Part shown: in pieces, positions 1,207-13,202 of the stretch
Layout of the letters: every line of letters starts with the position of its first letter
Numbering within the stretch: the first letter of the stretch is position 1
Origin: Acidobacteriota bacterium
GTDB lineage: Bacteria > Acidobacteriota > UBA6911
NCBI GenBank assembly: GCA_963664705.1
Contig: OY761556.1
Span: 6,048,001-6,112,000 of the forward strand
Length of the DNA: 64,000 nucleotides
Direction: 5' to 3'
Notes under the pieces: model-generated
Database searches by the model: none
What the model was told of the DNA's origin: nothing
Seen by the model: the letters and a program-made list of their open reading frames with translations, nothing else
Made by a program: the position numbers and the translations under genes

Positions 1207-2352
1207 GTGGTGAATTCGGAGACCAATACCAAACTGACAATTGCCGCGTTCCTCGGCCTGGTTGGGGTTGTTGCCGCATCTTTCTATGCCGGTTGGGAAC
1301 GGTTCTGGGCAAACTGGATCCTCTGGTTTCTTTTTCTGCTCACAATCGGTCTCGGCTCACTTTTCCTCGTGGCATTGGAGCATGTGGTGGGCGCGAAGTG
1401 GAGTATTCCGCTTCGACGCGTTCCGGAGCGTCTCTCCAGCCTTGTTCTCCTGATGGCTCCGGCTGCGTTGCTCGCATTGTTTTCCCTGCGATACCTTTAT
1501 CCATGGACGAGACCGGAGGCAGCGCAGAATCCCCTTGTCGCCGGGAAAGCCGCCTGGCTGAATGTCCCGTTTTTTTCGCTTCGAGTCGTGCTTTGCGCGG
1601 GCCTGTGGTTCCTGGCATACCGGATTATGGTATCCGGGTCTCTAAGGCAGGATGTTGATCGCGATCCCCGATTCAATCTGCGAGCGCGACGCTTCTCGCC
1701 GTTCTTCATGTTTGTTTTTGGAATTACCATCACGGTGGTAGCCTTCGACTGGATCTCGAGCCTCGAGCCTGCATGGTACAGCGATATCTTCGGGGTCTAT
1801 GTTTTTGCCGGGACTTTCCTTGCGGGGCTTGCTGCGACTACGCTGGCGCTGCTGTATCTGAAAAGCCGTGGAAGACTGCAGGAAGTGGGTCCGGACCACA
1901 TGTATAACCTGGGCGGTTTTCTTTTTGCCTTCACGGTTTTCTGGTCCTATATCGGGTTTGCCCAGTATATGCTCATGTGGTATGCCAATCTGCCGGAAGA
2001 GGTTTACTGGTACAGCGAGCGACTTGAAGGGGCCTGGGGGCTCATACTTCTCGCATTGGCTGTATTTCATTTCCTCGTCCCCTTTTTCATCCTGATCCCC
2101 CGGGACGCCAAGGGCAGTCCGAAGTTTCTTTTTTACACCGCCGCCATCATGCTTGTTTCTCACTGGCTGGACCTGTACTGGATGATTTTTCCGGTTTTGA
2201 AAAAGGGTTTGCTCCTGGGATGGCCTGAGTTGGCCTTTGGCCTGCTCTTCATTTGTGGTGGTCTCTTCTGGCTTCGACGTTTGATGAATCGAGGATCCGA
2301 TATGCCGGTAGGGGATCCTTTCCTGAGCCAGGGATTGGAGTTCCACCTATGA
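1207..2352 (+). CDS. actF: Alternative complex III subunit ActF (polytopic membrane protein)
   Basis: About 10 TM segments with WS..LRR..E, KAAWLN.PFF, AFDW..SLEP.WYS, FW.Y..F.QY.L.WYANLPEE motifs; ACIII context. Confidence 0.85.
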   Translation: MVNSETNTKLTIAAFLGLVGVVAASFYAGWERFWANWILWFLFLLTIGLGSLFLVALEHVVGAKWSIPLRRVPERLSSLVLLMAPAALLALFSLRYLYPWTRPEAAQNPLVAGKAAWLNVPFFSLRVVLCAGLWFLAYRIMVSGSLRQDVDRDPRFNLRARRFSPFFMFVFGITITVVAFDWISSLEPAWYSDIFGVYVFAGTFLAGLAATTLALLYLKSRGRLQEVGPDHMYNLGGFLFAFTVFWSYIGFAQYMLMWYANLPEEVYWYSERLEGAWGLILLALAVFHFLVPFFILIPRDAKGSPKFLFYTAAIMLVSHWLDLYWMIFPVLKKGLLLGWPELAFGLLFICGGLFWLRRLMNRGSDMPVGDPFLSQGLEFHL

Positions 2353-3266
2353 TCGAGAAATATGTGGATTCGGCGGAACTCAAGCGGCTTCTGTCCACAC
2401 TGGTGGTAATTCTGGGCTGCCTGCTCGTGGCGGGATTGTTTGCAAGCATCGTTGTGCCGGGACTGAGAAATGCCAACCAGCCTCCTAGCCCCACAGCCGT
2501 TGTCCCCGTTATCGGAGAATCCGGCTGGCTGGATCCTACGGAGTTTCCGCCGCAAAAGGGGCAGGAGATTCCCCCGGTGGATCCCAAGACTCTGATGAGT
2601 GCCACGCCGGAGTTGATTGCCCGCGGGAAGAGTCTGTTTGAGAGCAACTGTACGAGTTGCCACGGGGCTTTGGGACACGGCGATGGGCCCGCTGCATCCA
2701 CCATGAAGCCGCCTCCCCGTAATTTTTCGAGCCCCAACGGATGGGTGAATGGATATCACGCGCCGGGTATCTATAAAACACTGAGCGAAGGTATTGGCGG
2801 CACCTCCATGGCTTCCTTTGATTACTTGCGGAAAAAGGATCGAATGGCGCTGATGCATTATGTTCAGGCACTCGGCACTTTCCCGCATAATACGGCGCCT
2901 CCGAAATTGATGGAAAGCCTGGCCCAGACGCTGGCCTCCGCAGGCGAGAGAACGCCGAACAAGATTCCGGTCAGTATGGCCATGAATAAGCTCCGCGAGG
3001 AATTCCCGGCGGCTCCCAAACTGGTCATTGATGAAAATGACCAGAGTCCAGGCGGCGTGTTGCTTCGGAAAGCGGTGCTTGACCCTGTCCGCGCGTCCCA
3101 GTTTCTTGCGCAGTCATCAACCTGGCGCGCGACGTATCGGGATTTTGCCGCATCTGTACTTCTGGATATTCCGGAAAACGGCTTTTCAACAGCATTGGTT
3201 TCGCTGAAACCGGCAGAATGGCAATTATTGCATTCGGAGCTTGTTGCTAAAATCAAATCGAAATAG
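2349..3266 (+). CDS. Membrane-anchored monoheme c-type cytochrome with C-terminal extension
   Basis: ATGA overlap with the actF stop; N-terminal TM helix; CTSCHG..GHGDGPAA..KPPPRNF; GTSM distal Met. Confidence 0.8.
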   Translation: MIEKYVDSAELKRLLSTLVVILGCLLVAGLFASIVVPGLRNANQPPSPTAVVPVIGESGWLDPTEFPPQKGQEIPPVDPKTLMSATPELIARGKSLFESNCTSCHGALGHGDGPAASTMKPPPRNFSSPNGWVNGYHAPGIYKTLSEGIGGTSMASFDYLRKKDRMALMHYVQALGTFPHNTAPPKLMESLAQTLASAGERTPNKIPVSMAMNKLREEFPAAPKLVIDENDQSPGGVLLRKAVLDPVRASQFLAQSSTWRATYRDFAASVLLDIPENGFSTALVSLKPAEWQLLHSELVAKIKSK

Positions 3267-3278
3267 GGGAGAACGACA

Positions 3279-4046
3279 ATGGCCCGGAAGATTGCAGCAT
3301 TCATTCTATTGCTGCTTTTTGCTTCAGCCGGCAATGCTCAGATGCGGGCGCCTTCGGATATCGGGATTGATGAAAAACTCGGAGCCCGGGTTGCGTTGGA
3401 TATTCCTCTCAAGGATGAAGATGGGAACCAGGTCACGCTGCGCCAGTACGTCGACAAGCCGACTATCCTGATGTTCAATTATTTGCGCTGCCCCGGGGTT
3501 TGCCCGGTGCTTATCAACAGTGCGGTCGATGCAGTCAATCGGATGAATCTGGAACCGGGGAAGGACTACCGGCTTGTTGCCGTAAGCTTCGATCACACCG
3601 ACACTCCTCAACTGGCGCGAGAGAAAAAAGCAAATTACCTCAACCAGATGAGACGGCCCTTTTCGCCCGACAACTGGCACTTTCTGACCGGGACCCTTGA
3701 AAACATCAAGGCGGTGGCCGATTCCGCAGGCTTTCGCTATCAGCAGCAGGGGGACATGTTTGTGCATCCCGGGGCGATTATTCTCCTGACGCCGAAAGGG
3801 ATCGTCAGCCGGTACCTGTATGGATCCACCTTCCTGCCGGCGGATATCGAGATGGCGGTGAAAGAGGCAGCGGGCGGCGAAGTGCTTCCTTCAATTTCCA
3901 GGGTGCTGTCGTTCTGTTATGTTACCGATCCGAAGGGACGGGGACGGGTCTTCAGCATCACCCGGTTTGCCGGTGCCGCAACGCTGGTTGTTGCCGGAAT
4001 TTTTATAATTTTTGTTCTCCGGCCAAAAAAGTCTTCAAGTATTTGA
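3279..4046 (+). CDS. SCO1/SenC family copper chaperone
   Basis: Signal peptide, CPGVC (CxxxC), conserved HP, C-terminal TM; precedes oxidase subunit I. Confidence 0.85.
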   Translation: MARKIAAFILLLLFASAGNAQMRAPSDIGIDEKLGARVALDIPLKDEDGNQVTLRQYVDKPTILMFNYLRCPGVCPVLINSAVDAVNRMNLEPGKDYRLVAVSFDHTDTPQLAREKKANYLNQMRRPFSPDNWHFLTGTLENIKAVADSAGFRYQQQGDMFVHPGAIILLTPKGIVSRYLYGSTFLPADIEMAVKEAAGGEVLPSISRVLSFCYVTDPKGRGRVFSITRFAGAATLVVAGIFIIFVLRPKKSSSI

Positions 4047-4062
4047 GGTTAACGATACACCT

Positions 4063-5652
4063 ATGAGCTACCTGATCGAAGGCGGGAAAGGGATCCGGAG
4101 TTGGATCTTTTCTACGGATCACAAGAGGATTGGAGTGCTTTACCTGGTATCCATGGTTTCTCTCTTCTTTGTGGCCGTGACACTCGGCGTCCTGATGAGG
4201 ATCGAACAGCTCACGGTTCAAACGCCCATGTTTTCACCGCAAATATACAACGCGTTTTTTACGGTGCATGGCGTTGTCATGATCTTTATGTTCGTGCTTC
4301 CGGGCCTCCCTGCGGTTTTCGGAAATTTTTTCCTTCCGATTATGCTGGGTGCAAAGGATGTGTCGTTTCCCAGGCTGAACCTGATGTCCTGGTATTTCTT
4401 CATAGTGGGTGCCGGGCTTGTGGTTGCCTCCCTGTTTACAGGTAACGGGCCGCCGGATACCGGATGGACCTTTTATGCTCCTTTCAGCATCAAAACCGGA
4501 ACGAATATCACCCTGGGTGTTTTCGGTGCATTTGTTTTAGGCTTTTCTTCAATCTTGACCGGCCTCAACTTTATTACAACGATTCACAGACTTCGGGCCC
4601 CCGGGATGACCTGGCACCGCATGCCCTTGTTTGCGTGGGCCGTGTATGGAACCGCCTGGATTCAGCTCCTTGCGACACCGATTGTCGGGATCACGCTGCT
4701 CCTGGTGATAGCAGAGCGTCTGTTTGGGATCGGCGTTTTCGATCCCGCAAAAGGCGGGGATCCACTGCTGTATCAGCATCTATTCTGGATTTATTCGCAT
4801 CCCGCGGTCTACATCATGATTCTTCCTGCCATGGGTGCAATCACCGAAATCATCCCGACTTTTGCGCACAAATCGGTCTTTGGCTATAAGGCAATAGCCT
4901 ATTCTTCCCTGGCAATCGCCTTCCTGGGCTCCCTGGTTTGGGGACACCACATGTTTACCAGTGGTATGTCAGAGACCGCCAATCTGATTTTTTCCCTGCT
5001 CACGTTCATGGTGGCCGTCCCCAGTGCCATCAAGGTCTTCAACTGGACTGCGACGCTGTACAAGGGGGCCATTGAAATCAAACCTCCGATGGTTTTTGCC
5101 CTTACCTTCCTTTTCCTGTTCTGCATTGGTGGTTTGACCGGGCTCATGCAAGGTGCGCTTGCCGTCAATGTCCACATTCACGATACCTATTTCATCGTGG
5201 GGCACTTCCACTACGTGATGTTTGGCGGAACAGGGATGGGCTTCTTTGCAGCGCTGCTTTACTGGTTCCCGAAGATGTTCGGCAAGACCTATAACCACAA
5301 AATCGCCGTTCTTTCCTGGGTCCCGATTTTTATCGGATTCAATATGCTTTATTTCGGCATGCTGGTCCTCGGATATATGGGCATGCCGCGGCGCTATTTT
5401 ACCCATTTGCCGCAATTTCACACCGGGCACATTATCGCATCCGTGGGGAGTTTCATCCTGGCCATTGGCCTGGTTCTGTTCTTTGGAAACCTGGTAGTTG
5501 CGCTGTTTAAAGGGAAAAAGGCGGAACAGAATCCCTGGGGCGGGGTCACGCTTGAATGGCAGATTTCAACACCGCCGCCTCAGGAAAACTTTGCCGAGGT
5601 TCCGACAATTCGGGAACGTCCGTACGTCTTCAATCCGGAGGTCTCACGATGA
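4063..5652 (+). CDS. ctaD: Heme-copper oxidase subunit I, type A2
   Basis: STDHKRIG, HG..MIF, GWTFY.P, YSHPAVY (A2 signature), WGHH, HFHY, GMPRRY; GAGGT RBS before ATG 4063. Confidence 0.95.
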   Translation: MSYLIEGGKGIRSWIFSTDHKRIGVLYLVSMVSLFFVAVTLGVLMRIEQLTVQTPMFSPQIYNAFFTVHGVVMIFMFVLPGLPAVFGNFFLPIMLGAKDVSFPRLNLMSWYFFIVGAGLVVASLFTGNGPPDTGWTFYAPFSIKTGTNITLGVFGAFVLGFSSILTGLNFITTIHRLRAPGMTWHRMPLFAWAVYGTAWIQLLATPIVGITLLLVIAERLFGIGVFDPAKGGDPLLYQHLFWIYSHPAVYIMILPAMGAITEIIPTFAHKSVFGYKAIAYSSLAIAFLGSLVWGHHMFTSGMSETANLIFSLLTFMVAVPSAIKVFNWTATLYKGAIEIKPPMVFALTFLFLFCIGGLTGLMQGALAVNVHIHDTYFIVGHFHYVMFGGTGMGFFAALLYWFPKMFGKTYNHKIAVLSWVPIFIGFNMLYFGMLVLGYMGMPRRYFTHLPQFHTGHIIASVGSFILAIGLVLFFGNLVVALFKGKKAEQNPWGGVTLEWQISTPPPQENFAEVPTIRERPYVFNPEVSR

Positions 5653-6260
5653 GCAGCCCCGCCGCCACTCCGCACAAGGATTACGAAGGTGCCAAGCTGG
5701 GCATGTGGCTGTTTCTGTTTACCGAAATCCTGCTCTTTGGCGGGCTGTTCATCCTGTACTCGGCTTACCGCGCCCGCTACCCGATGGAGTTTCATGAAGG
5801 CGGACAACACCTGAATGTCGTGATCGGAGTGGCTAACACGATTATTCTGCTGACCAGCAGCCTGACGGTTGCAATGTCGATTGTGGCGATTCAGAAGGGG
5901 AATCGAAAGCTTTCCATCTCGTGCCTGATCGCAACCATCATCATGGGCGCCGCGTTCCTGGTAAATAAATACATCGAGTGGAGCGGAGAGATCAGCCACG
6001 GGTTGTATCCGAATTCTCCTGTTCTGGCGCAGCGTCCCAAGGGGGACCAGATATTTTTCGGGCTCTATTACAGCATGACGGGATTGCATGGGCTGCATGT
6101 CATTGCCGGAATCATCGTCCTGTCTGTGATGCTTTTATTTGTGATTCGCGGGAAAATCACCAGCACCGATTTTAACAAACTCGAGAATGGCGGCCTGTAC
6201 TGGCACCTGGTGGATGTGATCTGGATCTTTCTCCTGCCGCTTTTCTATTTGGCGGCATGA
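5649..6260 (+). CDS. ctaE: Cytochrome c oxidase subunit III
   Basis: GMWLFLFTE.LLF.GLF, NT..LL.SS, TGLHG.HV..G, LYWHLVD.IW; ATGA overlap. Confidence 0.93.
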   Translation: MSSPAATPHKDYEGAKLGMWLFLFTEILLFGGLFILYSAYRARYPMEFHEGGQHLNVVIGVANTIILLTSSLTVAMSIVAIQKGNRKLSISCLIATIIMGAAFLVNKYIEWSGEISHGLYPNSPVLAQRPKGDQIFFGLYYSMTGLHGLHVIAGIIVLSVMLLFVIRGKITSTDFNKLENGGLYWHLVDVIWIFLLPLFYLAA

Positions 6261-6266
6261 GGTCGT

Positions 6267-6569
6267 ATGGAAGGTGAGATGGAACACGCTGAACAGCACG
6301 CGCATGTCGTTCCCTACCGGACATTTGTCCGGGTCTGGCTGCTGCTGATATTTCTTACGGCAGCGCTTGTCGCAACCAGCAAGCTCTGGCACGAAGCCTT
6401 ATCGGTTTGGGCTATGCTGATCATTACCCCGGTCAAGGCGGGCCTTGTCCTGTTCTTCTTTATGCACCTCAAGTACGAAAAGCCCTACTTGCGCGCCCTG
6501 GTGTTTTTGACAATAGGATTGCTGACGTTGGTAATCGGTATACTTTTCTTCGATATTCTATATAGGTGA
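6267..6569 (+). CDS. ctaF: Cytochrome c oxidase subunit IV family protein (start may be 6279)
   Basis: Three TM helices, KA.LV.FFFMHLKYE motif. Confidence 0.85.
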   Translation: MEGEMEHAEQHAHVVPYRTFVRVWLLLIFLTAALVATSKLWHEALSVWAMLIITPVKAGLVLFFFMHLKYEKPYLRALVFLTIGLLTLVIGILFFDILYR

Positions 6570-6573
6570 TACC

Positions 6574-7542
6574 ATGCCGATCATACCCCAGGCTTCGAGT
6601 GCTGCAGGAAGGGTAGACTCGGTCTTCCTGTTCATCTTTATTCTCTGCGTCGTATTTCTCGTGTGCATCACTGCCGCGCTGATTTATTTCCTGATCAAGT
6701 ACAACCGGAAACGACATCCGCAGGCTGTGGACATCGAGGGAAACGTCGTTCTCGAGACGGTCTGGACCACCGTGCCCATTGTGCTTTTCCTCGTCATGTT
6801 CTTCTATGGCTGGACCGATTATCGCTATATGCGCGAGGCGCCCCGCGAGGCCATGGTGATCGAAGCTACCGGCCGCCAGTGGGCCTGGTCGTTCAAGTAT
6901 CCCAACGGGAAGCGGACCTCAGAACTGATCCTGGCAGCGGATAAGCCGGTAAAGATGGACCTTCGATCGCTGGACGTAATCCACGGCTTCTTTATCCCTG
7001 CATTCCGCATCAAGGAAGATGTGGTTCCCGGGAAAGAAAATTTCACATGGTTTGTGCCAACGCAGCTTGGCTCCTTCGATATCGAATGCACGGTCATTTG
7101 CGGCGTGAGTCACGCGAACATGCTGGCAAAAGTGGTGGTTGTGCCCACTTCTGATTTTGAGGAATGGTATTTTGGCGGCGAGGATGCCCCGCTGCCAAAG
7201 GCAACCCGGAAACCGGCGCCGCATCCGGTGGTCGCAAAGGTCGGAGATGCGGACATTCCAGCGCTGAAAATCATGAATCAGCGATTCTGCCCGACATGCC
7301 ACTCCATTGACGGAAGCGCCCTGGTGGGTCCTACATTCAAAGGACTGTACGGCAGCAAACAAATCCTGGTGGATGCCGAAGGCAAAGAGCATCCGGTTAC
7401 AGCCGATGATATGTATTTGGCGCGCGCCATCAACAACCCCGGCATGGAAACCGTAAAGGGCTATCCACCGGCAATGCCCAAAAACCCTCTGCCTGAGCCT
7501 GAGCTCAAACTGGTTATTGAATATATCAAGACGCTGAAATAG
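6574..7542 (+). CDS. ctaC: Cytochrome c oxidase subunit II with fused C-terminal cytochrome c (caa3-type)
   Basis: LETVWT..P, QW.W.F.Y, DVIH, CuA motif CTVICGVSHANM, then CPTCH..DG...VGP...MP. Confidence 0.92.
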   Translation: MPIIPQASSAAGRVDSVFLFIFILCVVFLVCITAALIYFLIKYNRKRHPQAVDIEGNVVLETVWTTVPIVLFLVMFFYGWTDYRYMREAPREAMVIEATGRQWAWSFKYPNGKRTSELILAADKPVKMDLRSLDVIHGFFIPAFRIKEDVVPGKENFTWFVPTQLGSFDIECTVICGVSHANMLAKVVVVPTSDFEEWYFGGEDAPLPKATRKPAPHPVVAKVGDADIPALKIMNQRFCPTCHSIDGSALVGPTFKGLYGSKQILVDAEGKEHPVTADDMYLARAINNPGMETVKGYPPAMPKNPLPEPELKLVIEYIKTLK

Positions 7543-7723: not shown

Positions 7724-7922
7724 CCCCAGCGGGGGCGGCCAGAACGTAGCCGGGGGTGAGCGCTTTTTGCGAACCCCCGGATTGAATTAGTCATGTAACA
7801 AGCCCTGACGGGGCGGCAGAATGCTGATCTTTCGCCCCTGGCCGGGGCTCTCTCTCCCCCTTATCGCTACCGGGGGTTCGCTGCGCTTCACCCCCGGCTA
7901 CGATCTCTCGGCCCTCCGGGCC
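7724..7922. repeat. Inverted doublet of GTAG-family REP elements with small accessory hairpins
   Basis: GTAGCCGGGGGTGAGCG..GCGAACCCCCGG at 7746-7780 (+) and GTAGCCGGGGGTGAAGCGCAGCGAACCCCCGG at 7901-7870 (-); GC hairpins such as GGCCCTCCGGGCC at 7910-7922. Confidence 0.85.
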
Positions 7923-8013
7923 CTGGACTTTGGACATTTGCGTATGTTAAGTTGTTATTTGCTATACATACATACGCAGTTGTGGCATTATCTCTGCAAC
8001 GGAGGTTAATGCC

Positions 8014-8367
8014 ATGAAGAAACTAGATCCGCTAGAACTACAAGATCCGATCCAACTCGCTGTGCTTAATGCCTTCGAGGTGGCACTCGATGCCCAGCTA
8101 CGTGCAATTCGAAAGTTAAAGAATCCCGATTCCGTGAAAGAGCAGCGTACGGCAGGGAGTATGTCACAGATCGATATGGTATACGACATACTTCAACGGG
8201 CAGGCAAGCCGCTACATATTACGGAAATCCTGGAACGTATTGAGAAGGTCTTTGGTAAACAACTGGATAGAGAGTCCGTGGTCTCATCCTTAGTGAAAAA
8301 GGTACGTCGCCACGATCGCTTTCTGCGAACGGACAAGAACGTCTTTGCTCTGAAGCAAGGAGAGTGA
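8014..8367 (+). CDS. IS accessory protein: N-terminal helix/coiled coil plus winged helix (HARE-HTH-like)
   Basis: GGAGG RBS; MSQIDMVYDILQRAGKPLHITEILERI...SSL.KK...F.R...NVFAL pattern resembles HARE-HTH/RNAP-delta N-terminal wHTH; lies inside the TIRs. Confidence 0.7.
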   Translation: MKKLDPLELQDPIQLAVLNAFEVALDAQLRAIRKLKNPDSVKEQRTAGSMSQIDMVYDILQRAGKPLHITEILERIEKVFGKQLDRESVVSSLVKKVRRHDRFLRTDKNVFALKQGE

Positions 8368-9743
8368 TCATGCTGCTGCCCTTCTACCGTTCCTTGTTGG
8401 AGCAGAGTTGGAAGGATGTTTTTAAGCAAGCACGGACACTGAAGCGAGGAATTGACCACGCTTTGACGTGGCCTTCGGCCTTGGGTCGAAGGACGATCTC
8501 GCAGATGATCTGTGTGCAAGGGCGGAATCAGGAAGACTGGAGCGCAGATTACAAGTTTTACTCGCGTAGTCATTGGGACGAGCAGGCATTGTTTGACAGG
8601 ATCTCTGAAGAATATCTGAATCGATATCCGAACAAGCCTGTGGTTCTAGCAGTAGATGACACTCGGATAGTAAAGAGCGGAAAAAAAATCCCAGGGGCCA
8701 GCTGGCAAAGAGATCCTTTGTCGCCTCCGTTTCAAGTAAACATGATTTGGGGGCTTCGGTTTCTGCAAGGATCCTTGCTGTTTCCGCACCATTGCGAGGG
8801 TGAATTCTCTGCGCGGGGTTATCCAGTGGCCTTTAGACACGTACCCGTCGTAAAGAAACCCGGGATCCGTGCCAGTGACCAGCAGCGAGAAGAATACAGG
8901 CGATTGAAAAATGCTAATAATCTTTCCACACAATCGTTGGAATGGATTCAAAACTACCGGAACCAGTTAGACAAGATGAAGGCAACAAATCGCACATTGC
9001 GAATCGTCGCAGATGCGAGCTTCTGTAACCGCTGTTTTTATAAAAACCCTCTCGACCGGACAGAGTTGCTGACACGATGTCGGAAGGACGCCCGCCTGTG
9101 TTTCCCTGCACCCGAGGGCAGTGGCCGGCGATATAGTATCGACATCTTCTCTCCTAAGGATGTCCTCGATTCCCAGCGCGCTGTTTTTAAATGGTGCAAA
9201 ATCTGGATGGGCCAAAGAAGACGCCGTATTCGTTACAAGATAGTGGAAGCCGTTCTTTGGCGACGTGGGGCAGGCACTCGGCAATTGCGATTAATTGTTA
9301 TTGCACCCATACCATATAAGCTCTCGCCCAATGCCTCCCGAAATTTTCGTCAGCCAGGTTATTTGCTGTCGACCGACACCTACAGCCCCGTCCGAGACTT
9401 GATCCAAAGCTACTTTGATCGTTGGCAAATCGAAGTCAATCATAGAGACGAAAAAACTGTGCTTAGCGTCGGACAGGCTCAGGTCTGGTCGATGTCGTCC
9501 GTATCGAAACAGCCGGCCTTGACAGTAGCTTCGTATTCCATGCTTTTGCTGGCAGGGTTGCATTGTTTCGGGCCCGGTCGCGATTTTTGTCGCATCCCTC
9601 TTCCGAAATGGCGATCGAACAGTTCACGCGTTTCTTTGCTCGATTTACTGACCTTGCTACGCACAGAAATCATTGAAACGTCTGTCAAGGAGCCCATTTA
9701 TGCGAAAATGGCCCAAAATCTAACCATTTTCGCTAAAACATGA
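8364..9743 (+). CDS. DDE transposase, IS701-like (start GTG 8364 or ATG 8370)
   Basis: LAVDDT..KSGKK, IVADASF, Y..RWQIE..HRD.K motifs; abuts the upstream ORF stop (GTGA). Confidence 0.88.
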   Translation: MIMLLPFYRSLLEQSWKDVFKQARTLKRGIDHALTWPSALGRRTISQMICVQGRNQEDWSADYKFYSRSHWDEQALFDRISEEYLNRYPNKPVVLAVDDTRIVKSGKKIPGASWQRDPLSPPFQVNMIWGLRFLQGSLLFPHHCEGEFSARGYPVAFRHVPVVKKPGIRASDQQREEYRRLKNANNLSTQSLEWIQNYRNQLDKMKATNRTLRIVADASFCNRCFYKNPLDRTELLTRCRKDARLCFPAPEGSGRRYSIDIFSPKDVLDSQRAVFKWCKIWMGQRRRRIRYKIVEAVLWRRGAGTRQLRLIVIAPIPYKLSPNASRNFRQPGYLLSTDTYSPVRDLIQSYFDRWQIEVNHRDEKTVLSVGQAQVWSMSSVSKQPALTVASYSMLLLAGLHCFGPGRDFCRIPLPKWRSNSSRVSLLDLLTLLRTEIIETSVKEPIYAKMAQNLTIFAKT

Positions 9744-9792
9744 TTTGTTTTTGTCCAAAGTCCAGGGCCCTCCGGGCCTAGCGCAAATAGAA

Positions 9793-11434
9793 CCTGACTT
9801 GACCGGTTTGCGTGAAAAACCAGGGTTCCAAATTTCAAAAGGCTTATAAATAGCGGGTCCAATCAGGGTAGCCACCTCAAAATGTGGTTACTAACGACGG
9901 CTAATAATGCGGCTTTCCGGCTTATACTCGGTGCATGACAAGCTTCATCCGGAAAGTGCGTACTAAAAGCGGAGCTACCGCAGTCCAGATTGTCTACAAA
10001 CGCGGGCGTGTGGTCGTAGGCGTTAAACATATCGGTTCCGCGCATAACAAAACTGAATTGGATATTCTCCTTGTCCGTGCGGAGGAAGTGAAGTCTGCCG
10101 GACAACTCAAGCTGGACCTATTTGGCGACATAGAGCCAGAACTATATCTGGAACGCTCTTATTCAGGCCTTCTGTGGGACGTTCTTGGTCGTGAATACCA
10201 GCGTATCGGATTGGACTGCATCAAAGACGATATTTTCAAACAGCTGGTTCTGGCCCGCATCATAGAACCCACATCAAAGCTCGATACAATAAGGGTTCTG
10301 GAAGAACTCGGACTTAATGCCCCATCAAATTCAGCGATTCACCGCTGTTTAAGACGCATAAACGATAACGGCTATCGAGACAATATTTCCAGCAAGTGTT
10401 TTGAACATGTGAAGCCTTCGGCCCTCACGCTTGTTTTGTATGATGTAACCACGCTTTACTTTGAAATACAGCGAGAGGACGCATACAGAAAGCCAAGGTT
10501 ATCCAAAGAACGCCGTCTGGAGCCGCAGATAACGATAGGGCTATTCGTTGATAAGAGCGGCTTTCCATTGGAGGTGACGAGCTTTCAGGGAAACAAAGCC
10601 GAAGTCAAAACCATCGTGCCGGTACTTCAGGCATTCAAGACACGTCACAGCTTAAAAGAGATAGCAGTTACCGCTGATGCCGCCATGCTTTCTTCTGGAA
10701 ACCTCGATTTTTTGGAGAAGTTGGAATACACATACATCGTCGGCTCACGAATATCAAAATGTCCTTATGAAATCGAAGAATACATAAAATTGCCGGGATC
10801 CACGCTAAAAGACGGCCAGGTCTTCGAGTCCAAAATAAAAGTGACCATAGCCGGAAAGCGGACATGCCGGCGTGCAATCTACCAATTTCGTTCCAGACGC
10901 GCGAGGATAGACCTGGCCAATATTGATAAGCTTCTTGCCAAGGCCCAGAGAATGGTCGATGGTAAGAGCGAAGTGAAACGCAACCGCTTTCTGCAAATCA
11001 TTGGCGAACGGAAGGCGATCAACACCGCTTTAGTAAACAAGGCGAGAATGCGGGCGGGAATCAAAGGCTACATAACGAATCTCAATCTTCCTGCACAACA
11101 GGTTATCGATTATTACCATCAGCTCTTTCAAGTTGAGAAGTCTTTCCGAATAGCAAAATCTGATTTGAAGGCTAGGCCGATCTTCCACCACAAACGCGAC
11201 TCCATTGATGCCCATCTAACGGTCGTATTTGCCGCCCTCGCCATCTCACGTCAAGTTGAGGGTGCAACCAAACTGAGCATCAGGAGATTCGTTCAGAAGC
11301 TAAAGCCACTTCGTACGGGTATTTTATCGATTAACGGCGCAAAACAACTCCTAAAACCACGGGTACCGCAAGAGATTTCCGATATTATCGCTTTTCTCGC
11401 CTCATGATGTGGTTACTAATTCGGTCAAGTCAGG
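9793..11434 (+). mobile_element. IS1634-family insertion sequence, ~1642 bp
   Basis: TIRs CCTGACTTGACCG (9793-9805) and CGGTCAAGTCAGG (11422-11434); internal direct repeat ATGTGGTTACTAA at 9882-9894 and 11407-11419; no adjacent target duplication. Confidence 0.88.
9935..11407 (+). CDS. IS1634-family transposase
   Basis: IRKVRT.SGATAVQIV, RIIEPTSKLD, LYDVTTLYFE, SKERRLEPQI, ADA.MLS..N, G.KGY.TN, L.QVEKSFR..KSDL.ARPIFH. Confidence 0.92.
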   Translation: MTSFIRKVRTKSGATAVQIVYKRGRVVVGVKHIGSAHNKTELDILLVRAEEVKSAGQLKLDLFGDIEPELYLERSYSGLLWDVLGREYQRIGLDCIKDDIFKQLVLARIIEPTSKLDTIRVLEELGLNAPSNSAIHRCLRRINDNGYRDNISSKCFEHVKPSALTLVLYDVTTLYFEIQREDAYRKPRLSKERRLEPQITIGLFVDKSGFPLEVTSFQGNKAEVKTIVPVLQAFKTRHSLKEIAVTADAAMLSSGNLDFLEKLEYTYIVGSRISKCPYEIEEYIKLPGSTLKDGQVFESKIKVTIAGKRTCRRAIYQFRSRRARIDLANIDKLLAKAQRMVDGKSEVKRNRFLQIIGERKAINTALVNKARMRAGIKGYITNLNLPAQQVIDYYHQLFQVEKSFRIAKSDLKARPIFHHKRDSIDAHLTVVFAALAISRQVEGATKLSIRRFVQKLKPLRTGILSINGAKQLLKPRVPQEISDIIAFLAS

Positions 11435-11512: not shown

Positions 11513-11891
11513 ATGTTCGCAGCAGATTTTGGTGGCGGGAACGATCCCACTGGGATGAGATCGTCGGAAAAGATGAGTGTTTTGCTCGCGCTTCGCTAAA
11601 ATCCTGAAAGGGGGCGGCGATGTTTATACCGCACGCTCTGTTTGCCCCGCTATCCATGGCCTTTGAAGTCTGCCTCGTCAGTACACCTGGTATTCCATGT
11701 ATTCACGACGCAAGCTTCCGAGATAACCATTAGACTCCAGACGATTTAAAATGTTCAATTCGTGGAAACACTCAAAGAGCCCTACGTAGAAATACCCACG
11801 GCGGCGGATTGCGCCCAATTGTGAAACGCCAATCGTAAATCCCCCATAACCTGTGCTATGCTCCACAATTCGCATCCTTGGAGGACAGCTA

Positions 11892-13202
11892 ATGACCGAC
11901 ACCAAAATCACTCTGCCGGAATCCGAGATTCCAACCCACTATTACAACATTCAAGCGGATCTGCCGACGCCTTTGCCGCCGCCGCTGCATCCGGGAACCA
12001 AAGAGCCGATTGGTCCTGAGGCTCTTGCCCCGATATTCCCGATGGAAATCATCCGGCAGGAGGTAAGCCAGGAACGCATGATAGAAATCCCGGATGAGGT
12101 CCGCGATATCTATCGCCTGTATCGACCCAGCCCGGTTTTTCGAGCTCGAGCTCTTGAGGAAGCGCTCGATACGCCTGCCCGCATTTACTATAAATCCGAG
12201 CATGTCAGCCCGGTTGGCAGCCACAAGCTCAATACGGCGCTGATGCAGGCTTATATTAACAAGAAGGAAGGTGTCAAACGCCTGGCAACCGAAACCGGAG
12301 CCGGCCAGTGGGGAAGCGCTTTAGCCTGTGCCTGCAAGTTGATGGGGCTTGAATGCATGGTTTACATGGTTCGGGTCAGCTATGATCAGAAGCCTTACCG
12401 GCGCATTATGATGAAAACCTACGGGGCCGATGTGATCGCCAGCCCTTCGAAGCTTACTGAGGCCGGGCGGGCCGCTCTGGCAGAAGATCCGAATTGCCCT
12501 GGAAGTCTTGGGCTTGCCATTTCCGAAGCTGTGGAAGATACGGTCAAACGGGACGATACACGCTATGCGCTTGGAAGCGTGCTCAATCATGTACTCCTTC
12601 ACCAGACGATTATCGGCCAGGAAGCCCTTCGACAGATGGAACTGGCGGGCGAATTCCCTGACATCGTCATCGGCTGCCATGGAGGCGGGAGCAATTTCGG
12701 CGGGCTGGCCTTCCCGTTCCTGAGAGAGAAAATCAACGGAAAGCAGAAGAACCTGAGGGCTATTGCCATTGAACCGAGTTCCTGTGCGTCTCTGACCACT
12801 GGAAACCGCGAATATGATTTCGGAGACGTTGCCGGAAACACTCCGCTCCTGATGATGCATACCCTGGGTCATAAGTTTATCCCCCCGCCGGTCCATGCCG
12901 GTGGATTGCGATACCACGGATCCGCCCCGCTGGTCAGCCATGTGCTGGCTTCGAAGCTGATGGAGGCGGAAGCTTATCCGCAGGGAGATGTGTTTGCGAG
13001 CGCCCTGAAATTTGCTCAATGCGAGGGCACGATTCCGGCTCCGGAAAGCGCGCATGCCATTCACAGCACAATCCAGCATGCCTTGAAGGCTCGGGAGTCC
13101 GGAGAAAAGAAGGTCATCCTGTTCTGCCTCTCCGGGCACGGCCATTTTGACCTGGGGGCTTACGAGTCGTATCTGGATGGCACAATGGATCTTAAGGCTT
13201 AG
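11892..13202 (+). CDS. trpB2: Stand-alone tryptophan synthase beta chain, type 2
   Basis: [21 protein letters not shown] (PLP Lys), [32 protein letters not shown]; GGAGG RBS. Confidence 0.93.

Follow-up and report, generated by a model that had tools for sequence, protein, structure and literature searches.

Insertion sequences (IS) of the IS701-related group described here duplicate the whole of the hairpin into which they insert, and this whole-hairpin duplication of variable length is the general rule of the group. Its starting point is an element in a stretch of 64,000 nucleotides of bacterial DNA (hereafter the window). We propose, with a probability of roughly 0.7, that the duplication arises when the element is joined to the two 5' feet of a cruciform that has been extruded, that the gene upstream of the transposase gene is replaceable, and that the upstream protein of the window copy, ORF A, acts as an autorepressor. 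Thus, the transposase itself likely picks its target by DNA shape, and the winged-helix gene before it is likely a replaceable regulator.

The window element, as delimited by sequence and repeats, is a 1,843-bp IS (7923-9765) with perfect 14-bp terminal inverted repeats (TIRs), a winged-helix (wHTH) ORF and a DDE transposase of Tn5 fold. Its left TIR (IRL, 7923-7936, + strand) reads CTGGACTTTGGACA, against a family consensus of CTGGAGTTT(GG/CT)ACA, and the right TIR (IRR, 9752-9765, - strand) is the exact complement. Immediately outside both ends stands the 13-mer GGCCCTCCGGGCC (7910-7922 on the left, 9766-9778 on the right), each copy being the complete accessory hairpin of a REP unit, with a 5-bp stem and a 3-nt loop, which IS-free REP units hold only once. 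Between the TIRs lie an operator-like inverted repeat, GTATG-N20-CATAC (7942-7971, + strand), which overlaps a degenerate -35 box, then ORF A (8014-8367, + strand; 117 aa, with a long N-terminal helix, a linker and a C-terminal winged HTH) and the frame of the transposase (8364-9743, + strand; IS4/Tn5 fold), whose overlap with ORF A bears out the coupling of the two genes read earlier from the sequence. The insertion site adjoins an inverted pair of GTAG-type REPs forming a REPIN-like unit (7746-7901, with GTAG at 7746-7749 and CTAC at 7898-7901).

The host genome, 6.89 Mb in one contig, holds four copies of the IS with 99.95-100% identity, and all four are flanked by 13-bp duplications that are hairpins of a 5-bp stem and a 3-nt loop, located 8 nt past the CTAC end of a REP. 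Three of the targets share one sequence and one differs, and one copy lies in the opposite orientation; because the copies differ in target sequence and orientation, the ends of the IS are fixed, and the different flanks of the four also rule out a chance repeat or an assembly artefact. Four sequencing runs were examined, and two of these, from one sample that is possibly the source, had the IS as a separate contig of 1,837 nt at about 2-5 times the depth of its flanks, with no empty-site joint among the contigs from those runs. The sequence-only reading had described a two-gene IS with 14-bp TIRs and an exact 13-bp hairpin duplication, identified with the accessory stem of the GTAG REP, and both statements are true of all four copies in this genome.

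The surroundings of the window copy show some further features. To the right of the insertion (9779-9790), the REP unit lacks a segment of about 26 nt that follows the hairpin in IS-free units and in two other copies, which looks, from its sequence, like a deletion between two GGGCC stretches. A single-copy IS1634-family element (9793-11434) begins 14 nt past the right duplication, encoding a 490-aa transposase (9935-11407, 326 bits) between perfect 13-bp TIRs that were identified by eye; the element is flanked by inverted REP tails and lacks a direct duplication. Both IS occupy an intergenic gap with REPs, bounded by genes that, from their translations, look like a cytochrome c oxidase operon (2253-7542) and a TrpB-like gene (11853-13202).

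The transposase passes the Pfam DDE_5 model, and its best NCBIfam model is NF049999 transpos_IS701_3, at 125 bits against a cut-off of 170. Four close relatives score 132-149 bits on the same model, two deep relatives just pass (172 and 182), and members with short duplications reach 309-336. IS4 models give 15-31 bits against cut-offs of 152-250, and no IS30 model among NCBIfam or Pfam matched to E 1. In the AlphaFold model (pLDDT 87.9), the top five structure matches are Tn5 transposase, with E values of 1e-10 to 8e-9 and a TM score of about 0.5. The residues D96, D215 and E355 are invariant in all 124 aligned sequences, and the full YREK pattern, Y..R...E......K, is present in 126/126 distinct clade-locus motifs matched; in alignment A1 (124 rows), the tyrosine column has 102 Y, 13 C and 9 mis-hits of the pattern. 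Compared with four outgroup rows of IS701_3 type, the clade carries two specific inserts, about 13 and 9 residues long, in which basic residues are conserved; in the 457-aa protein they lie at about residues 157-169 and 315-327. A GGAG stretch at 8359-8362 lies 1 nt from GTG 8364 and 7 nt from ATG 8370, and the closest homologues are mostly 457 aa long; ribosome-site spacing and homologue lengths thus favour ATG 8370 as the probable true start, so that the DDE transposase predicted earlier stands, but with 457 aa probably replacing the 459 first assigned.

Homologues of the transposase numbered at least 5,234 among 7,999 candidates scored, and the loci studied comprised the 80 best of 239 loci in genomes, the 80 best of at least 592 loci in metagenomes and, from a phylum sample of 401 genomes, 17 matches of lower similarity, a selection that is biased by the query and includes repeated copies and related, non-independent elements. 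Named hosts, all listed as MAGs, belong to Acidobacteriota, Thermodesulfobacteriota, Verrucomicrobiota, Gemmatimonadota, Bacteroidota, Chloroflexota, Nitrospirota, Omnitrophota and Pseudomonadota, and among 72,556 PLSDB plasmids nothing exceeded about 25% identity to the transposase. The elements of the clade are 1.8-2.4 kb long with two genes and have conserved ends, CTG(G/C)AGTTT. The transposase tree is midpoint-rooted with long branches and leaves the root and the sister group unfixed.

From 314 element ends, 282 had 36 nt of flank, of which 274 were distinct, and a perfect stem of at least 6 bp starts 0-1 nt from the TIR at 221 of these. Such stems occurred in only 1-9 of 236-270 control windows shifted by 10-100 nt and in at most 4 in 100 shuffles, whereas a 5-nt shift, still within the hairpin, gave 33/271. 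At 40/274 ends there is no stem of even 5 bp within 0-1 nt of the TIR, and the right flank of locus L260 is also non-hairpin. Stems of 5 bp serve as targets in Verrucomicrobia too. Among 53 distinct intact insertions, the four own copies included, duplications measure 13-32 bp with a mode of 20-22 bp; they are centred on the hairpin dyad in 49, and within half a base of it in 3 more, and start at the stem's 5' foot in 18 and one base outside it in 22, which supports the earlier idea of cutting at both feet of the stem-loop (40/53). Duplication length follows hairpin length (r = 0.88), and in one genome (G305) a single element has duplications of 21, 21, 24 and 27 bp. As the duplication varies in length with the hairpin and is centred on its axis, DNA structure, not a fixed stagger, sets its length; a fixed stagger of 13 bp is ruled out by the range in the relatives.

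The targets of the 53 insertions are mutually unrelated in sequence. A length of 13 bp and REP accessory stems, which the earlier reading had taken as characteristic, are not the rule of a family that uses many unrelated hairpins. Several other explanations of the flanks were rejected. TIRs longer than assumed, which would include hairpin bases, are contradicted by the first base outside the TIR, which varies (G 124, A 70, T 42, C 37, N 1; n = 274). Terminators are not the target class, since T-tracts are not enriched (6/229, against 9 in the control), and a GTAG/GTRG tag is not a family-wide requirement, as GTRG/CYAC is found at the foot in only 6/53 intact insertions; among 229 one-sided views, the CYAC tag was near in 21 and far in 10.

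In DDE transposition, the distance between the two active sites normally dictates how far apart the target strands are attacked, and a duplication length that the target hairpin determines, within a 2.5-fold range, departs from this norm. In an extruded cruciform, two phosphates separated by 13-32 bp of sequence would come to lie at a fixed distance from each other across a four-way junction; the 3' ends of the element would be joined to the two 5' feet of the cruciform, and gap filling would then copy the whole hairpin. On an extruded cruciform, an unchanging geometry would be expected to produce staggers like those observed, which measure 13-32 bp, may be even or odd, have the dyad at their centre and end at the feet of the stem. 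In a more specific version, whose chances we judge to be slightly better than even, this widespread Tn5-fold family would consist of junction-reading enzymes that cut diagonally across the base of any extruded cruciform, by analogy with Holliday-junction resolvases, leaving target length free between 13 and 32 bp; the two basic inserts would be the sensor, and the upstream regulator would be a plug-in cassette (wHTH, DUF6788, DruA or AbrB-like), each kind bringing its own promoter region, that has been swapped repeatedly and is also used by other IS families. If this version is true, insertion maps would be a natural record of palindromes extruding in living cells.

Not all elements carry a duplication. 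The 140 relatives with both TIRs divide into 49 with a duplication of at least 8 bp, 63 with different flanks, 8 with inverted flanks and 20 with too little flank, so that 71 of the 120 with at least 20 nt of flank show none. Long-contig assemblies, grouped by label, account for 30 duplicated, 7 different, 4 inverted and 2 short flanks (11/41 without duplication), and metagenome contigs for 8, 44, 3 and 12, respectively; the missing duplications would fit mis-joined repeats in short-contig assemblies together with some real rearrangement. In the eight inverted cases (L006, L007, L022, L042, L070, L104, L156 and L160), the element stands between two inverted repeat copies without direct duplication, as if the spacer of a REP pair had been replaced by the element. 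These loci, four of them in long contigs, lend some weight to the main rival, in which each end separately captures a single-strand hairpin foot in locally melted DNA (a replication fork, a transcription bubble or an opened REP unit), with no true four-way junction; one hairpin present on both strands would give a duplication, and two neighbouring hairpins would cost the spacer. The use of short 5-bp stems, both here and in Verrucomicrobia, is in keeping with this rival, and so are the targets, since the four that were picked and tested are all dispersed, often paired repeats with further IS-free copies in their hosts. We nevertheless regard it as unlikely: in nearly every intact insertion the two sides have the same offset from the stem foot, which is what would be expected of a symmetric junction. 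Recombination between copies and adjacent deletion are well known for IS elements, and inverted or different flanks can also result from these. Such rearrangement is discussed for ISRm22 (PMC1525189).

Shape alone is not the whole targeting rule in this genome. REP accessory hairpins make up 103 of its 26,464 perfect hairpins and were chosen by all four copies, while none of 704 hairpins with stems of at least 8 bp was used, which indicates that context matters. A 5-bp stem is unlikely to extrude by itself; the neighbouring REP pair (7746-7901), which forms a single long, imperfect hairpin that bears small hairpins at the feet (z -6.96) and thereby places the target at a foot, might open the region. 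The same REPs, inverted, also flank a single Y1 transposase gene (154-aa frame, G000:C1:1439920-1440261), likely the RAYT of this REP family; inverted REPs around a transposase gene are the arrangement described for RAYTs (PMC2817692). A host enzyme, whether a junction resolvase or this REP tyrosine transposase, could accordingly be imagined to pre-cut the base of the hairpin, with the IS captured at the break; the REP-like nature of the tested targets and the presence of the RAYT-like gene speak for such pre-cutting. We consider it highly improbable, as the DDE triad is invariant, the pattern recurs with many unrelated families of hairpins and in no fewer than eight phyla, and IS701-type elements of the host's own phylum make ordinary duplications of 4-5 bp.

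The gene upstream of the transposase varies within the clade. All 140 loci with both TIRs carry one, and among 168 clade loci it encodes a wHTH protein in 147, an AbrB-like protein in 8, DUF6788 in 6 and DruA in 6, the one locus without it being 5'-truncated. The DruA genes (Druantia, PF14236; about 296 aa, within the TIRs of L066, L067, L069, L071, L073 and L076, from Verrucomicrobia MAGs) overlap the transposase start in 2.4-kb elements; the AbrB-like protein has no Pfam match and takes its label from an Atlas lead (17% PF04014 cluster, score 0.94). Hairpins adjoin 219/243 ends of wHTH elements, 8/8 of AbrB-like, 9/12 of DruA and 9/9 of DUF6788 elements, the last judged from ends alone, with no intact duplication among them; duplications are 13-27 bp in DruA elements and 21-27 bp in AbrB-like ones. 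In a transposase tree of 28 rows, two well-supported nodes join DUF6788 elements to wHTH elements, and monophyly of the DUF6788 elements is rejected (AU p 1e-13), which implies that the upstream slot was exchanged several times while hairpin targeting stayed the same.

These data bear on the suggestion of the sequence-only reading that the small winged-helix protein steers the transposase to REP hairpins. The constant presence of some upstream gene, the ATGA/GTGA overlap in 91/120 distinct wHTH junction regions, the location of all four copies at REP units, and the ability of winged helices to bind unusual DNA shapes (Z-alpha rows are found among the weak fold matches of ORF A) would all suit such a role. 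However, homologues lacking the small ORF had been named in that reading as evidence against it, and this is in part what is seen: DUF6788, DruA and AbrB-like elements have another gene in its place and have kept the hairpins (26/29 ends combined). Four unrelated proteins thus occupy the slot with the same targeting, and the suggestion is not supported. Components of the slot are, moreover, met elsewhere: of 18 DUF6788 loci scanned, 7 have the gene in front of a transposase resembling those of ISKra4, IS4, IS66, IS1182 or ISNCY, and a search of 401 genomes gave four non-self hits to ORF A, of which one is separated by 4 nt from an IS1634-family transposase and three have no transposase match downstream. 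At that locus (L215, G090:C391), the ORF A homologue is preceded by a palindrome over a TTGACA box. Complex prediction for the transposase and ORF A scored 0.00 in two runs and is not evidence either way. Together with the operator-like repeat discussed below, which offers ORF A another job, these findings make steering improbable.

A role of the small ORF in regulating transposition, also put forward earlier, is instead suggested by an inverted repeat that travels only with the wHTH gene. Its consensus, GT(A/C)(T/G)G-N19-22-C(A/C)(G/T)AC, overlaps the -35 box and was found in 77/91 distinct wHTH elements (1.9 expected from shuffles) against 0/10 others; the motif was picked by eye from 15 of the counted elements, so that the count is descriptive, and kin are not independent. 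The right arm directly follows a TTGA-like box in 66 elements, and the arms are exactly complementary in only 39 of the 77. In the window copy, promoter boxes assigned by eye are a degenerate -35 (7963-7968) and a putative -10 (7986-7991), a consensus scan having called no promoter on the + strand there. A repeat of this kind over the promoter points to ORF A as an autorepressor, which on the sequence data is probable: as a likely dimer through its modelled N-terminal helix, it would bind both half-sites over the -35 and damp the coupled transposase gene. The sequence of ORF A matches HARE-HTH and RNA polymerase delta weakly; the HARE-HTH-like label proposed earlier keeps this resemblance, but the ORF falls below the Pfam cut-off (E 9.8e-5, 23.1 bits against 25.9), which one of three scanned homologues passes. 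In the AlphaFold prediction (pLDDT 83), a linker connects a long helix at the N-terminus to a winged helix, and the nearest folds are RNAP delta and Rok (E 2e-3 to 2e-2), with none at E 0.001 or better.

IS701-family elements normally have a single-ORF organisation, which is also seen in L183 and L186. The window transposase scores best, below the cut-off, on an IS701 HMM, and the clade shares with IS701 an IS4-like DDE fold and related TIRs, the IS701_3 member L186 (336 bits) ending in TTCGACTTTGTCCA. Outgroup loci show clear duplications of 4-5 bp (CTAG, TTAG, CTGAG) in 6/13, L186 among them, the other seven giving no clear reading. In De Palmenaer et al. 2008 (PMC2266710), IS701 is defined by a length of 1,400-1,550 bp, a 4-bp duplication and a YREK motif mostly without Y; the present clade differs from that definition in its longer elements with an upstream gene, its 13-bp duplications in 4/4 copies and 13-32 bp in 53 insertions, and its complete motif including the tyrosine. 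The end consensus ---YACT-Y--YR is given there for one of three IS701 end clusters, and the clade's CTGGA(C/G)TTT is closer to L186 than to canonical members. The clade is thus, by its sequences, related to IS701 but lacks the published length, 4-bp duplication and missing tyrosine of that family. The complete YREK motif recalls the IS4 family as delimited by the same authors, but duplications there are 7-13 bp whereas the clade reaches 32 bp, and IS4 models score poorly.

Precedents for this behaviour are found in other families. A whole-hairpin target duplication, as in the clade, is reported for IS1630 of Mycoplasma fermentans (Calcutt, Lavrrar and Wise 1999; PMID 10601219), which is, however, a single mycoplasma element of about 1.4 kb with an IS30-type transposase, in contrast to the Tn5 fold, exchangeable upstream gene and wide range found here; the lack of an IS30 model match likewise separates the clade from the IS30 family. 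IS1272 (IS1182 family), for which Wan et al. 2017 (PMC5678879) describe stem-loop replacing transposition, targets inverted repeats by structure, with a proposed cruciform target, but deletes the hairpin by 3'-foot joining without duplication. Pathway b of their Fig. 13, hypothetical there, predicts whole-hairpin duplication by 5'-foot joining, and it is this opposite outcome, only modelled for IS1272, that the clade displays. REP-targeting IS (ISPsy8, ISRm22, ISPpu9/10, ISPa11 and IS1397; Tobes and Pareja 2006, PMC1525189) resemble the present copies in that all copies within a genome take a fixed REP position, but in that paper the break falls at a single point of the REP or on its axis and duplications measure 0-6 bp, none of these IS is described there as copying a whole hairpin, and IS701 is not mentioned. 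The open-access literature gave no account of an IS701-like hairpin-duplicating group, ISfinder and subscription journals being outside the search, in agreement with the earlier suggestion of an undescribed IS701-related group.

The 5'-foot cruciform pathway, long modelled but rarely seen, becomes directly testable in a Tn5-like fold, for which the short-duplication relatives provide controls and the basic inserts candidate sensor loops. If the proposed mechanism is true, the transposase could probe cruciforms in vivo, a disputed question, and could be used as a tool for integration that is directed by structure and avoids genes. The swappable regulators offer initial clues to the function of DUF6788 and of DruA-domain proteins found outside Druantia.

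Additional observations concern the margins of the family. Six non-coding, MITE-like elements of 125-515 bp with family TIRs (L252-L257, in G401, G403 and G404) are partly built from REP-like hairpins, and most adjoin hairpins; one of them, L254, has a 23-bp duplication with 2 mismatches, and the same three genomes hold many further solo family ends. Deeper relatives (L083, L084, L087, L089, L091, L095 and L099), with transposases of 490-560 aa and 25-37% identity, come from one bacterial family; paired TIRs are absent within 1.5 kb, some of the relatives are preceded by small HTH-like genes, their family being judged by eye, and L083 retains a right TIR that adjoins a 14-bp stem.
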